The notes beneath the pieces are model-generated. The model saw only the letters and a program-made list of their open reading frames with translations, searched no databases and was not told where the DNA came from. Shown piece by piece: positions 1 to 8,053 of a stretch of 64,000 nt of DNA. The translations under genes and the position numbers were made by a program. Location of the stretch: NCBI GenBank assembly GCA_004022145.1, contig RCNU01000002.1. One strand, 5' to 3'. The first letter of the stretch is position 1, and every line of letters starts with the position of its first letter. This DNA is from Paecilomyces variotii (lineage: Eukaryota).

Positions 1-3000
1 CTGAAAATGGAGTGTGATCCTATTATCGAATGTGGGAAGGAGGACTGTGCTGAGAAAGATGATATTGCCTTCCCTCAACTCCTCAAAGGAAGGGACAGTG
101 ATTCTCATCTGATCAACGGAAAGAAATCCATTCCAGACGATAATACCTGGCAAATCTGTGACATAACAGATCCTCTTTTGCAGAGCATTGTAGCCACGGG
201 ACAGCTCCGTTCCGAAGTCTCGTGGAAGGATGGATTCTTTTGGAATGGAACAATGGCTAAGCTTGAGGTCATTATGCGCGATAAGTTAATCTGTCTCAGA
301 GATGGTAACATCCCTCTCGATGATGAATACAGGTGCCTCCTAGGTTTTCCTGAGAGATATGAATCCTCACAACGCGATCATATCAGGTATGGCCTAGAGT
401 TTGGCCAGACCTATACTATGAAGCAAGCTTTTTTGAGAGGGAAGATATTACGCAGGGCACGCATATCTCTTTCCCGAGGATCGATGATGCAGACTCAGAA
501 CGGCTCCCAGAACAACACTCCTGCACTCGAAAAGCCGCTGACCGAAGACCAACTACAAACAATTGATAAAATAGGAAATAAACAGTCGGCTCAGCGCCTT
601 TATAAACGAACATTAAAGATATTTTCCAAGGAGGAGAGGTTGAATGCAATTGATTTTCTTCGAACACGGAAACACGTCAACCCCACAACTGGACAGGAGC
701 GACCCATTTCGATCTCAAGTGCATCTGAAGTCCTCTACATCGGCGAGGGTACATTGAAACGGTGGATAAAAGAGGAAGGAAAAATCGTAGAAATGCGGCA
801 GGGGTCGTCAAGAGCAGATGGGCCAAGGAAAGAACCCGTCAAGATAACAGACCAGTATGATTCAGGACATTATCCATTCCTCATGCTATCGCCAGAAGAA
901 CTGCACAGCTATGAAGTCATACAACGAAATGAGTTGCACAAGGTACTGCCTACGACGGGATTCCTCTTCTGAGATAATTTACAGATATTTACTTACTATG
1001 GAATAGCTACATCCTTTTGAACATCCAGTCCCTTTCATCGGGATAGAAGGAGGCCGATCTGGGCGACTGAAAACTTTCGAGGATGCTTATAAGTATCTCG
1101 GCCAACAGACCCAGACTTTCCACATTGGACATCCACTTGAACCCTCTGAACCCTCTACAAATAACAAGATGGAAAAGCCAGTACAACTTCCAGATCCTAA
1201 TTCCACAAGTTCCTACCTGAGAGACCCAAAGTCTCAGGGGATAATCAAGAAAATGACAGCACAAGAAGTTAACTCTTGGCTTTACAGCCTTTCGCCAAAG
1301 TATGAACCCAGAACACTTTGTTCAACAGAGCGAAATCCTTTCTATCATGAGTTGACGACGTGTGTTGCCTTTATATGTCAGCAGATGATGGCTGCAAATG
1401 ATAAGGTGAGCGATGATAATACATATCTCCGCTAGATACCGATGAAGTATGTTGATTGTCTGCATAGCTCAAGTCTGCACTTCCAGTCCGGGTCGAGTTT
1501 GGTTACGACCAACCTTTCCAAGGTGCCCCCCAACAATGGGCCATTAAACTTTTGTTCACCACTGACATAGAGATCCTGCTTCCATTGGCACTATGTCTAA
1601 AGGGTTCTGTTAAAGATGAAGTCGCTCCCGACTCCCTCTATCTTCAAGGCTGGACTATAGACCATGCCTTGTTGCCTTGCACAGGGCAGAAAAGGATAAG
1701 AAAAAGGGAGAAGTCAATCAAGTACATGCAACAATTTTACGAGAACTCACAGCCTATTTTTGACAAGTTCAGGTTGAGTCCAGTACTGTATATCACAGAT
1801 GTTGATATGCTGTTTCTTAGAACGCCGGGTTGGCGGCCGCGTCGGTTTTCTGCAAGGTGGACACTATACAGTACAATCCTCCACACCAGCTACCGATTCA
1901 AGTCTCCACTAAGCCCTGTGTATGGAACATATATGGATATTGGACTAATGGTTGATAAAGTCCTTGAAAAGGGATCACAAGTTTCTTTCATAGTCCCACC
2001 TAAGCACCCCTTCCAGCTCGTCAAACTGAGCCAATTTACACTCGACCATGGGACTTCTGAGAGTAATATCCTGTCAGACTCGCTCCACCAGTTTACTGCT
2101 GGTGATACTTCGTCTCATATCACTTTGCGATTCAAGGATATTGAAGATTACTTCTACCATGAAAGCGCAGTTCCTGACTCTGAAGGAATATACCGTGAAA
2201 GATTACACCATGCGCTTAAGTCGAGCGTGGAAAGAGGTTTCAATTTTGTGGACAACAAGAGAAAGTGCATGTTTTATACGTGCCCGGAGCCTCCATGGTC
2301 CTCAAGAACGTACTACTGTCGCTATCACTCTGGCGCACTCATCAGGCATTTCTTCGACCTCACTCCTTTATCTATTGACGTATCCACAACCGCACATTCG
2401 GAACTGGAATTATCGATCACAGACAGCACACGAACCACCTTGAAGGAACTCAAGACCATGTTCTTGAGGCCTGAGAATACTTGGATCATGGACTTTGAGT
2501 TTATTTCCATGCCGGTTAAGTACTCACCAATCCCACTACAACTTGCAATCAGACAGATAGATGGAAAGCTGCTGTATTCGGGTAATGTGGACTACAAATT
2601 GTCCATGAAGGACTTGGTCGAGATTACTTCACCGTATGTCTCAGACAAGCATGGTATGATGGGTACACTATTCCTGAGATGCTATGGAGGTCTCAAAACC
2701 AATGGTGAGACGCCTCCGAAGATCAGAGACCACCTTCGAGATGTTTGCGGCTACGACAAAGACAAAGTTCAGCTATTATCCTGGTTTTCTGCTCATGACA
2801 TGCAATGCTTTCTCAGAATCCTTTCGGGGAATGATGGCTTAATCCAAGACAAGATGTCTCATCTGAACGCATCAAATTTTCAATCGATCAATGTAGGTAA
2901 GCTATGCCGAGACCTCTTTCCAGGGCTCGCCTCGGGCAGACTTGGGACAGTGCATCAATATCTCGGGAAGAATACGGATTCATCCAGCGGAGAAGATTAC

Positions 3001-3066
3001 CATAACGCCTCGTACGATACTGCAGCGATGGTGGACATTATCAATGTTCTCGTGGGGTTGGTTTAA
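1..3066 (+). CDS. Uncharacterised ~980-aa (possibly 5'-truncated) protein with an HTH-like segment and a C-terminal DEDDh 3'-5' exonuclease-like domain; exons ~1-942, 1007-1405, 1468-3066
   Basis: ORFs 7..972, 1169..1435 and 1552..3066 join in frame through GT-AG introns 943-1006 and 1406-1467. Motifs: ISISSASEVLYIGEGTLKRWIK (HTH-like); WIMDFEF (ExoI), SAHDMQCF (ExoII-like), HNASYDT (ExoIII H-x4-D). Confidence 0.6.
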
Positions 3067-3522
3067 GTCCATTTTGGAATCCCTGGCACAGATCAGAAAG
3101 TCGACCTAGGAGAAATCACTAGATTGTTTCTTAGCCAGTTAATTGGAAATAGGGTCAGATGACAGAGTATGGGATAGGGGGGAATAAATACGTATTATGT
3201 TGTATTGGGTACATACATAGTAGCTGAATATTTTATTGAACAATATAGTTGTATTGAAAATAACCCTTCACTCAAAGTAGAATATATTTACACTCCCGAA
3301 AAGAGTATCATAACTAGCCCGAGAACAGGTGTTATACATACGGAGTACAACGCAAGCCTTTAAACGCCGGGAGGGTTAATAATAATATCTTACATTCAAC
3401 CAAGCGCACTCCGAAAGGAGTAGATCACGTTAGGTACATTAAAAAATCCGAATAGGCTGAGATGCCTACTACGAAGCACACTCTTCGCTTCACGGTCGAC
3501 TGGTGATCTGGCAAGATTAAAG

Positions 3523-3531
3523 AAAAAAAAA
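3523..3531 (-). terminator. Pol III oligo-T terminator (T9) just downstream of the tRNA
   Basis: A9 run on + strand starting 12 nt past the tRNA 3' end. Confidence 0.75.
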
Positions 3532-3542
3532 GATTTAAATGC

Positions 3543-3678
3543 CGACAGAACTGGGATTCGAACCCAGGCGGGCGAACCCACAGGCTTACTATTTGGGGTG
3601 TTAGTTGAAAGTCGGGCTACGGTGTCTTGTAAAGGCTACTTACGCAGGCCTGCACCTTAACCACTCGGTCATCCTGTC
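3543..3678 (-). tRNA. tRNA-Ser(GCU), 81 nt mature, with a 55-nt intron (3589-3643) inside the anticodon
   Basis: Minus strand: acceptor GACAGGA/TTCTGTC with G73, D arm ACC-GAGTGGTTAA-GGT, anticodon stem CAGGC/GCCTG, long variable arm GGG-TTCG-CCC, T arm CTGGG-TTCGAAT-CCCAG. Removing GTAAGT...CTAAC...TAG gives loop CT-GCT-AA. Confidence 0.9.
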
Positions 3679-4126
3679 AGATGATGACTATTTTTTCCCG
3701 AAATACGCTACTTCATCCAAACATACAGTGCCCCATGGCTATGACCTCTTAATTGATCAGTCTTTGGAGCACTGGATCTCCGGAGGTACAACGGCTTGCC
3801 TCAGCTTGGGTGTAGATACTGCCACTCAAGCGCAGGCTGAATGCTCACCTGTAAAACCAGGCCTTTCTTCTTTCTTCGCTTCTTTCTGCTGCAGGCAGCC
3901 AACATTAGCCGCGTGCGCTTTTTCTTGATGACGTCCCACTTGAAGCTCACTTCTACCTGAGCCTGAGCGATGCCCAGAGACTTCGACCTGTTCACGCATC
4001 TTCCCTTGTACGTTCGCAGCGAGCGCAGACACTTCTCAATAAGCGCCCCGCATCATTTAAGTACCAAAGCCCTCTTGCTAAGAGACTTGTGGCACTGACC
4101 GCGGGGCTAGTTTTCCGGCAGGTCAG

Positions 4127-7100
4127 ATGCTAAACAAGATACGGAGCGACGACGCTCAAGATGATGAGCGCAGGTTGTTCCCGAACTTCGAGTACGTAAT
4201 CCCACAAGCATTCCTGTCGTCTGTAGTGCTCACTCTTTTCTCGGATACAGCAGGAACAGTTCGAATGCGGTCACGATCATTCCTGGAGCTACATTCAGAA
4301 AACCCGGCAAATTAACGCACGTAAGCAAGATCGCGGCTCCCTCATGAAGACGGCATCTAACAGTATACATGGATTAGGGGCTATCTCCGTTTCGGCCCAT
4401 AGACACAATCGCGCGTCACTCCAGACAAAGTGGGCCAGTTCGTGCGGCGGGGAAGGGGAGGCAGCTGGATGATCGCAGCGTTACAATTCCTGGTTCTTCC
4501 CACCGCGGATACTCTGTGGAACTGGATGAGAATAATAGGCCGACAAAGCGCCAACGTCGAAGCCTGGAGGCGACATCGGGTCCGGTTGTCGATTTGATAG
4601 ACGTTGAAGATATGGAACATCAGACGTCTCCAACAGGGACGTCATCCTCGTTTCAGCACACGTCCCGTCTATCTTCGACATCTAGCCAGCAGTCCGTACG
4701 TCCAAAGAAATCGAAGGGGACAGGGAAGAAACTAGACGAGTATAGGAACGTGGAACGGTTAATGAGCGTTGGTCACGCACCGACCAGTCCTCAGAATTAT
4801 TTCCACAGAAGACAGGTGATTATTGAGGATGACAATGACGCTCCGCCTACACCAAAAAGGAAACCTGGAGACACGCGAGAAGGTGCCGATCGGACTGAGA
4901 CTGACAAAGTCAACCGTGACAACAAGCCGGAAATCCTCGACAGTGTCGAGATTTGCAATACAAGGAACCAAAAGGATGTGACCGAGCTGGAAAGTCCAAA
5001 GTCTCTAAAGAAATTCTTTTCGACAGACAGTAAGCGACGCGGATCAAGCGGACGAGAGAGCCCGGACGAACTACAGGGAGATATCACCGTGCAGCGTGCG
5101 CCTTCCTCGCTGAATGGAGTGCATGCGAGGGAAGCCAGTGTCGGTTCCTCATCAGCCGACCGATCGAAGAAAGATGCCTGTTGGCGATCATCTCCAAGCG
5201 ATATTCGTCCCGTGGAATTCACGTCCACCTCCGGAAAAGATCGAGGAAAGGCAAACCGGAAAGAGAGGTCAGACAAGGGTGCTTCTCACAAGAAATTGTT
5301 CGAAGCAGACTTGTTCCGTTTCGGCCCTGTCGAGCGTGTATCTTTCGAAGGACAGGGCTTTGAACTCACTATCAATAAGGCCCGAGACACTCTTTGCCTG
5401 GCGGAAACTGCTGACAAGGACAGCACGAAGGGGATTGATATACCGCTGCAGAAAATCACGACTGTCTTCGAAGGAGAAAGTCCAAGTCGTAAGATCCGTT
5501 TACGTCTTTCAAAAGTGGAGGGCAGCGATGAAATGGTAGATATACAACTATCTTCAGAGAAGGAAAAGGACAACTTCTGCAAGGTCCTGAAGCGGAAAGA
5601 TATCAAATTTTTATCAAAAGAAAGGTATGCGTTTGTAGTGGCTTCCCACGGACCTAAAACTAATGAATCTGCCAGTGGGTGGATGGACGCTGCATTCAAT
5701 AGGAATGAGAAAAGAACTGCTGCGCAGAAAGGTCGCTACAAGCGCCTCAACGACGCAGAGAACAGCGAGGAGCCTGTTCAAAAGTCGAAATCCGAAACGA
5801 TTAAACGGCCAAAACTTTCCGAATCTCTCCAAGATGACAGCGCCAACACCAACCGCTCTGCAGGGTCTATGATTAGTCGACCCCCGCGTCGTCTAGGCGA
5901 AGCTTCGAGTCATGCGCAGAGCCAAACTGAAGTCCCTGACCCGGACAGTCACAGCCATCCATCCAGAAGCGGATCTGATGAAGGAGTCGCAATCCCTGTC
6001 AAGAAATATATGGATAATTCCTTGTACGAACGAGAAACACGGTCCAAATCCCGGAAAACACAGCCTGCAGTCATTAGGTTCGCGAATCCATGGCCCCCAA
6101 GAAGAAAGCTCAAATGTCAGCTAACAATGACCCAGCGATGATAAGGAGCCAACAGTAGAGAAAGCAGTGTCCGCTTACAAGCCGCGAAAGTGGTCGAAAT
6201 CCCTTGTGTACCCTCGAGTGGGAAAGAAGAAGGCTGAAGTCGATGTACATGATCTAGAAAGACTCCGTGACGGAGAGTTTCTCAACGATAATCTCGTCGG
6301 TTTCTATCTGCGATTCCTTGAACATCACTTGGAACGTACAAGCCCTCAAACGGCGAAGAAGATCTATTTTTTCAACTCCTACTTCTTTGAGACACTTACC
6401 AATCTTCCGAGAAGCAAACGTGGGATTAACTATGAAGGCGTCCAAAAGTGGACGAGGAATGTCGATATCTTCAGTCATGACTATATCGTTGTTCCTATCA
6501 ATGAGAGCGCACATTGGTACGTGGCTATCATATGTAATCTGCCGATCTTGGAGCGCCCTCAAGAGGGTAGTCCCGAGCTCGAAGGATTTCCTGATAAAGA
6601 AGTCTCGGAGGAGCGTTCAGAAATCCCTGAGACTCCACCAGCTGTGGCGGAAGATAGTTCGGTCAACGACCCTAACGCTATCGGCAATGTGCACTCGGAT
6701 TCCGGTAAAGAAGAGAAGACCCGTCAATCACTCGCTTCAATGACACTTTCTGACAATAGAGAAGTCTCCTCGCCCACTGGGGAAAAGGTTCAGTCTGGGA
6801 CAGCACCGGAAGCTGACGATGATTGGCCGGAGGGAGAAGAGAACCCTACCTCGTCACCCCCGAAGTTCACAAAGCCTGGTGATTATCCTCGTGAGCCAGA
6901 ACCGAGCCAAGAACAGGAAGATGTGTCACGGAAGAAATCGCAAGCGGCCGATAAGGGAAAGAAGCAAAAGAAGAAACAAGGACGCTCTTTGCCGAAATAC
7001 GATCCCAAGCAACCGGTTATTATTACGTTCGATTCCCTGGACCTCCCGCGCTCGCCGACAGTAAGATGCCTCCGTGAGTATCTCTACGAGGAAGGGAAGT

Positions 7101-8053
7101 CTAAACGCGGAATCGACGTCGATGTGAAGGCGATCAAGGGGATGACGGCGCGAGAGATCCCACTGCAACCTAATTTCTCAGACTGTGGTCTATACCTACT
7201 GGCGTACATGGAAAAGTTCATCCAGGATCCAGATTCTTTTGTGACCAAACTTCTTCAGAGAGACATGAAAACGGAGACGGACTGGCCTTCGCTGAAATCC
7301 GGTCTCCTCCGCCGTCGCCTTCGCAAGTTCCTCGACGATCTGTATGAGGAGCAGGAGGAGGCACGGCGCCATAAGATGACCGAGACAACCACAATGGCTG
7401 ACAGGAAGCCAATTTCATATCTATTGGGGCCCAGTCAAGTCTCTAAGAAGATAAGGAGCGGTGACAAGCCTGCGCGGAAATCTGAAGAGCATGATGCATT
7501 ATGCTCTAAGGACCAGAGTCCCTCCAAAGATCTCCCTGGAAACAGAAGCAGCCCGGAGGAGCTAGTGCTAAGACAGTCGAATGGTGATTCGTCGCAGCAG
7601 GCTGCATCAAAGGACACCCTGAAGAAGGGAACGCCAGATGAGACAACTCCAAGACAGCCTGAGGTGGATGATACAACTGTATCAGGCCCAGTTGGCGAAG
7701 CTGCAGAGGACGCCGCAGCAATAGTGCAGCCTCCCGCTATGAATGACACGGCACTCGAAAGTACGACTTCGGACCGCGAAGTGATTGAAGTACTTGATAG
7801 TCAGTCACAACAAGTACCAGCTTCTCCACGCCATCTCCGTCATAGCAAGGGAAAGAGACAGTCAGGACCTCGACACGCAGAGGCAGCTGACGATGAAAAC
7901 TTCCTCGATGAACTGCAAGAGGTCGTAAATACGTCCCCAAAAGTTAGAGTTGAGGTGCAAGTTCCAGGGACACCACCCCTTGGCAGAGCAACGGCACTTG
8001 TGGAGGATAGCCCGCGGAGAAGTCCGCGACAGGCGAGACCAACGAGCAAGTGA
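4127..8053 (+). CDS. ulp2: Ulp1-family (Peptidase C48) SUMO protease, Ulp2/SENP6-7-like
   Basis: FLNDNLVGFY, YFFNSYFF, VPINESAHWY, ITFDSL and QPNFSDCGLY catalytic motifs with a split catalytic domain. In-frame introns ~4193-4250, 4321-4377, ~5624-5675 and ~6078-6134. Confidence 0.9.

Follow-up and report, generated by a model that had tools for sequence, protein, structure and literature searches.

A tRNA-Ser gene interrupted inside its anticodon by a 55-nt insert that resembles a spliceosomal intron lies on the minus strand at positions 3543..3678 of the window, the 64,000-nt stretch of contig RCNU01000002.1 (assembly GCA_004022145.1) analyzed here. Our favored reading, drawn from the sequence, is that a Paecilomyces variotii-like mold has here a working nuclear gene for tRNA-Ser(GCU), that the gene carries a U2-type GT-AG intron between tRNA nucleotides 35 and 36, and that this intron is removed by the spliceosome; we give this reading a probability of about one half. 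Three lines of evidence carry it. The insert contains a full set of splicing signals that agree with those of RNA-verified introns nearby, its excision at 35/36 is the only one that yields a coherent serine tRNA, and a second Ser(GCU) gene, found in a metagenome contig, is interrupted by a GT-AG insert at a different site.

The gene was recognized by its match to the Rfam tRNA family RF00005, which runs over window positions 3678..3543 of the minus strand and covers the full model (positions 1-71) at 43.1 bits, above the gathering score of 29 (E 7.8e-06). This is the sole Rfam match within the 64 kb, and ARAGORN in its intron mode (-i) delimits nearly the same interval, c[3541,3679]. The 136 nt of the gene divide into an 81-nt tRNA and the 55 nt of the insert. 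The 5' exon (3644..3678, minus strand) contains tRNA nucleotides 1-35, that is, the 5' strand of the acceptor stem, the D arm, the 5' strand of the anticodon stem, and the loop residues C32, U33, G34, and C35. The 3' exon (3543..3588, minus strand) contains nucleotides 36-73, with U36, A37, and A38 followed by the 3' strand of the anticodon stem, a long variable arm, the T arm, the 3' strand of the acceptor stem, and G73. The stems are intact: GACAGGA pairs with TTCTGTC in the acceptor stem, CAGGC (nucleotides 27-31) pairs with GCCTG in the anticodon stem, and the T arm reads CTGGG-TTCGAAT-CCCAG. The loop of the D arm, GAGTGGTTAAGG, is typical of serine and leucine tRNAs, and the discriminator base is G, which at position 73 marks serine tRNAs. 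The long variable arm is recognized by seryl-tRNA synthetase (PMC10275265). An unconstrained fold of the 136 nt, with a z of -1.89, contained no cloverleaf and is uninformative.

The anatomy of an RNA polymerase III (Pol III) gene also appears to be complete at this locus. An A box-like promoter element, TGACCGAGTGG, can be read from the sequence at 3661..3671 (minus strand, tRNA nucleotides 8-18), and a B box, GGTTCGAATCC, is located in the T arm at 3554..3564 (minus strand) by both pattern match and the Rfam alignment; the two elements are named by their agreement with the A and B box consensus sequences. Eleven nucleotides downstream of G73 follows a run of nine T residues (3523..3531, minus strand) that resembles a Pol III terminator.

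On the minus strand the anticodon arm reads ...CAGGC CTGC|GTAAGTAGCC...CAACTAACACCCCAAATAG|TAA GCCTG, with 62 nt between the two strands of the stem, namely a 7-nt loop plus the 55 nt of the insert. The insert, which we read as a spliceosomal-type intron between nucleotides 35 and 36, occupies 3589..3643 (minus strand) and starts with the 5' splice site GTAAGT (3638..3643), as read from the letters. Its branch-site motif, ACTAAC (3600..3605), fits RCTRAC and puts the branch A at 3601, at a distance of 12 nt from the end of the intron, with 11 nt following the last C of the motif. The 3' splice site, TAG (3589..3591), supplies the first AG after the branch site, as the intervening stretch, ACCCCAAAT, is free of AG. 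The insert thus shows each of the sequence features by which a U2-type intron was defined here: a donor within the consensus GTRNGY, an RCTRAC motif 6-36 nt from the acceptor, a YAG that is the first AG, and an appropriate length. The longest T run in its 55 nt is 3, and it therefore contains no T4 run.

Comparison with the introns of a neighboring gene shows how closely the insert follows local usage. Contigs of four metatranscriptome runs (X15-X18, of which X17 and X18 are cDNA runs) were aligned to positions 3000-6500 of the window and, as a positive control, revealed five spliced joints in that gene. The five introns verified in this way are 51, 58, 58, 59, and 103 nt long, a range that includes the 55 nt of the tRNA insert. 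Two of them have GTACGT as the donor, the other three have GTAAGC, GTATGC, and GTTCGC, and each ends in YAG. A CTRAY motif with its branch A located 11-17 nt before the end of the intron is present in four of the five, and none is found in the intron at the 4191/4251 joint. By these features the tRNA insert reads as a typical member of the local set of spliced introns. The likelihood that such signals arose by accident was estimated from the k-mer frequencies of the 64-kb window, by combining a donor, a branch motif at 8-30 nt, and a YAG at one fixed placement. The chance of finding the three signals together at that placement is 5.4e-6 with relaxed motifs and 7.8e-8 with the exact GTAAGT and CTAAC, and a correction for a few hundred tRNA genes, each with eight placements, still leaves a small figure.

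The identity of the tRNA depends on where the 55 nt come out, and all placements of the excision within the anticodon loop were enumerated. Excision at 33/34 or 34/35 yields the threonine anticodons AGU and GGU, respectively, excision at 35/36 yields GCU (Ser), and excision at 36/37 or at the canonical position, 37/38, yields GCG (Arg). Position 37 is A for the first four placements and U for the last. Only the 35/36 placement restores the loop CTGCTAA, and only after this excision are the long variable arm and G73 combined with a GCU anticodon containing U36 and followed by A37, as expected for a tRNA-Ser(GCU). The same loop is present in seven of the seven other Ser(GCU) genes that were compared (see below), after canonical excision in five (L001, L002, L003, L005, and L007) and without interruption in two (L004 and L006). 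Consistent with this, ARAGORN calls the product of in silico excision at 35/36 a tRNA-Ser(GCU) of 81 nt. Given the interrupted gene, the same program found 0 genes in its default setting, which has no intron mode. With -i it proposed a Thr(AGU) tRNA with a 55-nt intron at 33/34, a call that we rejected because the long variable arm and G73 of the body do not fit it.

A first-pass annotation of this DNA had claimed most of these features, and the analysis bears them out. It described a tRNA-Ser gene interrupted in its anticodon by a 55-nt insert, as the full-length Rfam match and the dissection of the gene both indicate, and it placed a GTAAGT donor, a CTAAC 11 nt before the 3' end, and a TAG acceptor where each was indeed read. 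Its statement that the stems, the A and B boxes, and the T9 run are intact and that the insert has no T4 run is confirmed. The resemblance that it noted to neighboring mRNA introns holds for the five RNA-verified introns in both length and signals. Finally, the loop CU-GCU-AA and the serine identity that it derived from GT-AG excision at 35/36 agree with the ARAGORN call on the excised product and with the loop shared by the other seven genes.

These other genes were obtained from a scan of metagenome contigs with a pattern that fixes the D loop, the loop letters CTGC, and the T loop and that allows an insert of 37-67 nt between the last two. The scan returned seven loci. In five of them (L001, L002, L003, L005, and L007), all Ser(GCU) genes, the intron is of the ordinary 37/38 type, and neither GT..AG borders nor a branch motif was found in any of these five introns at eight placements each. 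The sixth, L006 (1-124, minus strand), lies at the end of a contig and resembles a tRNA-Ser(GCU) gene. Its CTGCTAA loop is intact, and roughly 40 additional nucleotides are located within or next to the variable arm. These nucleotides lack GT-AG borders, and a strict scan for the bulge-helix-bulge (BHB) motif gave one candidate of 35 nt, the product of which looks too long.

The seventh locus, L004, provides a second case. This tRNA-Ser(GCU) gene (520-654, minus strand), which is followed by a T9 run of its own, has an anticodon stem, a CTGCTAA loop, a variable arm, and a T arm identical to those of the window gene. Between T-stem nucleotides 51 and 52, however, it harbors a 54-nt insert (542-595) of the form GTATGT...TCTAAC...ACAG, with a longest T run of 2. 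Removal of this insert at its GT and AG borders restores the T stem, CTGGG/CCCAG, and yields an 81-nt Ser(GCU) tRNA. ARAGORN misses the gene entirely. After excision the L004 and window products are identical at 73 of 81 positions, and the remaining eight positions fall into four compensatory pairs, 5:68, 6:67, 7:66, and 10:25. Because every difference is compensatory, both lineages appear to have been under selection for tRNA structure, either before or after the insertions. The two inserts share their splicing signals only and are otherwise unrelated in sequence by BLAST. When the two were compared by BLAST with the window and the loci in search of a source, nothing but self matches and chance words of 10-11 nt turned up. 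The separate insertion of L004 at 51/52 suggests that the event happened more than once. We would put at slightly less than an even chance the broader proposal that Eurotiomycete molds possess a class of nuclear tRNA genes with Pol III transcripts that need the spliceosome, with at least two independent entries into Ser(GCU) genes (at 35/36 and 51/52), most simply by reverse splicing into the mature tRNA followed by retro-integration.

The transcription, splicing, and function of the window gene are predicted from its sequence, and the following course is proposed. Pol III would transcribe the gene from the A and B boxes to the T9 run, with no T4 run in the intron to halt it. In the nucleus, U1 would pair with GUAAGU directly after C35, and the branch site ACUAAC, 12 nt upstream of the first downstream AG, would be bound. 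Two transesterifications would then release the 55-nt lariat and join C35 to U36. The resulting loop, C-U-G-C-U-A-A, would supply the U36 and A37 needed by a serine tRNA that reads AGY codons, and end trimming, addition of CCA, and base modification would follow as in any tRNA. In budding yeast the tRNA endonuclease is located on mitochondria (PMC4090602), and the nuclear spliceosome could therefore get first access to the precursor, provided that this budding-yeast location, which may not be that of the present fungus, applies.

The same intron might instead be removed from a transcript of RNA polymerase II (Pol II), with the tRNA contained in a longer noncoding or read-through RNA, the intron excised co-transcriptionally, and the tRNA released by RNase P and RNase Z. 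Recruitment of the spliceosome is normally coupled to Pol II, which is the argument for such a route. Against it stand the A and B boxes, the T9 run 11 nt past the end of the gene, and the T9 run similarly present at L004, as well as the position of the locus between two plus-strand genes, on the strand opposite to both. No contig from X15, X17, or X18 covers the tRNA (3000-3700), and such lack of cover proves nothing. We consider a Pol II origin of the spliced precursor very improbable.

Several observations weigh against maturation of this tRNA by the spliceosome. Work in animal cells is reported to have found Pol III transcripts to be poor splicing substrates. Position 10 of the tRNA is A, pairing with U25, where G is usual. 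A GT-AG insert at 35/36 was seen in none of the seven metagenome loci (0/7), and two scans each of prokaryotic genome contigs and of viral contigs gave 0 loci. No spliced joint at the tRNA was present in the contigs of the four metatranscriptome runs; contigs lose rare forms and the libraries rarely capture tRNAs, and this lack weighs neither way. The only contig that spans the insert, a 225-nt contig from X16 (record 5), is unspliced over 3557-3679. In addition, X16 contains several short, deep pieces of 32-38 nt from the T arm (window 3551-3586) that end at 3586 (A38), one of which diverges exactly at A38 into unrelated sequence, as a copy with an intron at the canonical position would. These pieces suggest the existence of further Ser(GCU) sequences, which in this mixed-organism sample could be those of the same fungus or of another. 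If they belong to this fungus, the window gene is not the sole source of the tRNA and may be redundant. A cut by the endonuclease at 37/38 is also structurally possible in principle, and the general supposition for eukaryotic tRNA genes is that an insertion in an arm marks a pseudogene (PMC4090602). As a separate observation, one 38-nt piece from X16 has four unmatched letters beyond 3586.

Some of these points would fit a dead or dying copy of the gene. In such a copy an intron or intron-like mobile sequence would have entered one of several redundant Ser(GCU) genes, its splicing would be unproductive, and the exons would still be intact simply because little time has passed since the insertion. 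Insertions at odd sites in eukaryotic tRNA genes are viewed in this way by default (PMC4090602), and the hints of other Ser(GCU) sequences in X16, the lack of a spliced junction in the RNA contigs, and the lack of an ortholog with the same intron in the metagenome, prokaryotic, and viral contig scans can all be read in its favor. X16 holds a further loose end, an L004-type acceptor strand with its own T5 trailer. This copy of the L004-type gene appears to be without the T-stem insert, judging from a contig match that starts at 3551, which would make the L004 insert lineage-specific and possibly young.

The structure of the two genes, on the other hand, argues against a dead copy. The window gene and L004 each have full and correctly placed splicing signals together with an intact cloverleaf, promoter boxes, and a T-run terminator. 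Neither insert contains a T4 run, and the compensatory nature of all eight differences between the products argues in the same direction. X16 record 5 also bears on this point. Over the 123 nt that align with the window it shows 10 differences without a gap, and in its upstream flank the match is lost after 8 nt. Its source may be a paralog or a related fungus that was present in the sample, and it may be DNA-derived. Despite this divergence, the length of the insert is the same, and the four differences for which positions are given (4/10, at 3594, 3598, 3608, and 3611) fall within the insert and leave GT, CTAAC, and AG untouched. While a dead copy is the foremost alternative and deserves to be taken seriously, we judge it unlikely.

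An ordinary intron is the next alternative to the spliceosomal one. Nuclear tRNA introns lie between nucleotides 37 and 38 (PMC10275265) and are spliced out by the joint action of a protein endonuclease and a ligase (PMC4090602). The insert could be a Sen/TSEN intron of this kind that looks spliceosomal by accident or by descent, in which case the product, with the anticodon GCG and U37, would be poorly active or would insert serine at the arginine codons CGC and CGU. A cut at 37/38 is possible in principle because the eukaryotic enzyme acts as a ruler that finds its site by distance from the body of the tRNA, without the help of a motif (PMC4090602). In the window gene the A-I pair position is filled by C32:G90, U33:A89 and G34:U88 also pair, the anticodon stem is intact, and the Rfam model readily aligns the insert within the loop. 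However, C32:G90 and U33:A89 follow automatically from the presence of an AG acceptor before U36 and are therefore not independent evidence for a canonical intron. Moreover, excision at 37/38 would place a pyrimidine at position 37 and an arginine anticodon on a serine-type body with a long variable arm and G73, and a loop other than CTGCTAA was found in 0/7 of the other Ser(GCU) genes. An ordinary intron would also leave GTAAGT, ACTAAC, and TAG unexplained, with their chance of 5.4e-6, and would give no account of the insert in the T stem of L004, which the ruler mechanism of the endonuclease cannot reach. We therefore regard a canonical intron as improbable.

The endonuclease could also act at a shifted site if a BHB motif were formed there, as in archaea, Cyanidioschyzon merolae, and nucleomorphs. 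Noncanonical tRNA introns removed by the endonuclease do exist in some eukaryotes (PMC4090602; PMC3728597). At 35/36, by contrast, the BHB is absent: the central helix has two of four pairs, which are not adjacent, the outer helix has one of three and is broken at its first pair, and the inner helix has none of three. The outer helix would, in addition, disrupt the anticodon stem. A strict BHB scan found no motif at the borders of the window insert, and at L004 there was none at any of three placements, where at most one of the four central pairs could form. A BHB intron is hence the account to which we give the least credence. The absence of a BHB is established, as are the sequence anatomy of the gene, the match to local introns, and the second case.

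The existing literature agrees with the view of it taken in the first-pass annotation. That spliceosomal introns occur in fungal U6 and rRNA genes is supported by a review (PMC5855946), and that nuclear tRNA introns normally lie at 37/38 and are cut by an endonuclease is what PMC10275265 and PMC4090602 describe. Indeed, as far as the excerpts of these recent reviews go, they present endonuclease introns at 37/38 together with exceptions of the BHB type in algae. The annotation knew of no established case in a tRNA, and our search of the full-text literature, with subscription journals and supplementary files outside its reach, likewise brought up no nuclear tRNA gene described as having a spliceosomal intron; the nearest wording that it met was "non-spliceosomal tRNA introns". 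The interpretation in the annotation is supported in part. The local introns, the lack of a BHB, and L004 support an insert of spliceosomal type, whereas its proposal that the tRNA is matured by the spliceosome did not gain support from the four contig sets, in which no spliced junction was seen.

The genes on either side of the tRNA are both on the plus strand. Elsewhere in the window a protein is encoded that shares 99% identity with one attributed by its source to Paecilomyces variotii, which makes the organism a mold of the Eurotiales. The upstream neighbor (1468-3066) is an open reading frame of 532 codons to which no Pfam family was matched; a protein atlas gave a sub-threshold likeness of 0.88 to clusters of RNase T-type exonucleases. 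The other neighbor, which extends from about 3900 to 8053, encodes a Ulp1-type protease. In its first part (window 3906-4378), three short introns, 4008-4110, 4192-4250, and approximately 4321-4377, precede the long open reading frame, with joints in cDNA contigs. One joint in this neighbor was printed as CG..AG with one extra letter and corresponds to a GT-AG intron (GTAAGC) with the alignment offset by one base. Over the Ulp1-like gene, long contigs from X15 and X16 differ from the window by about 1.5%, and their match to it ends at 3729, after which the sequence is unrelated; the relative in these samples must therefore be arranged differently between the Ulp1-like gene and the tRNA locus.

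If the favored reading is true, a tRNA matured by the spliceosome links two splicing systems that have been thought separate, and it would mean that a Pol III tRNA precursor can serve as a substrate of the spliceosome. It would also allow the reverse-splicing model of intron gain to be tested cleanly on a natural case. The broader proposal of a class of such genes would add a fourth route of tRNA intron removal to those of the endonuclease and of group I and group II introns, and it would be natural evidence that the spliceosome can reverse-splice into RNAs outside itself. The favored reading would further reveal a blind spot in programs that find tRNAs. Both genes were missed or mis-called by ARAGORN, and serine tRNA genes could therefore be absent from fungal annotations or mislabeled in them. 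The favored reading can be tested directly, by ordinary methods, in a mold that is culturable.

Spliceosomal introns in noncoding RNA genes are already known, and the window gene would extend them to tRNA. The closest working precedent, by analogy, is the sole U6 gene of Schizosaccharomyces pombe, the intron of which the spliceosome takes out (Tani and Ohshima 1989, 1991; Canzler et al. 2016, in PMC5855946). According to abstracts, U6 is a Pol III product. As in the U6 introns, a small, abundant, structured noncoding RNA gene is broken in the window by an intron with a canonical 5' site, branch site, and 3' site. There are differences, however. U6, unlike a tRNA, is located at the spliceosome's catalytic center, which explains why it is targeted, and tRNA precursors, unlike U6, have a protein-only splicing pathway of their own that could compete. 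Moreover, the splicing of the S. pombe U6 precursor has been shown by experiment, whereas that of the window precursor is predicted from its sequence.

Spliceosomal introns have also been recorded in U1, U2, and U5 small nuclear RNA (snRNA) genes and in rRNA genes (PMC5855946). In fungal U3 snoRNA genes, 129 of 138 introns contain RCTRAC, the distance from branch site to acceptor is 6-36 nt, and one lineage-specific intron position is typical of Eurotiomycetes (PMC5832005). The U3, U1, U2, U5, and rRNA introns show the same set of signals in a noncoding RNA gene as does the window gene. The class of host RNA differs, and no tRNA gene is named in the excerpts of these two papers (PMC5832005; PMC5855946).

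Among tRNA introns, the canonical Sen/TSEN introns of Ser(GCU) genes resemble the window insert in their host family and in their location in the anticodon loop, and the 55 nt are within their known range, with an A-I pair possible. In contrast to them, the window gene has its anticodon restored at 35/36 rather than at 37/38, and its insert contains GT, a branch site, and AG. The ectopic introns of C. merolae, nucleomorphs, and archaea likewise occupy noncanonical sites, including the T arm and the anticodon loop (PMC4090602; PMC3728597). Those introns, however, are defined by BHB motifs and are without GT-AG or branch signals, while the window and L004 inserts have no BHB. The fungal U6 introns, which are proposed to have arisen by reverse splicing and subsequent reverse transcription (PMC5855946), combine canonical signals with unrelated sequences and differing positions (PMC5855946), and the inserts of the window gene and L004 show a similar pattern.

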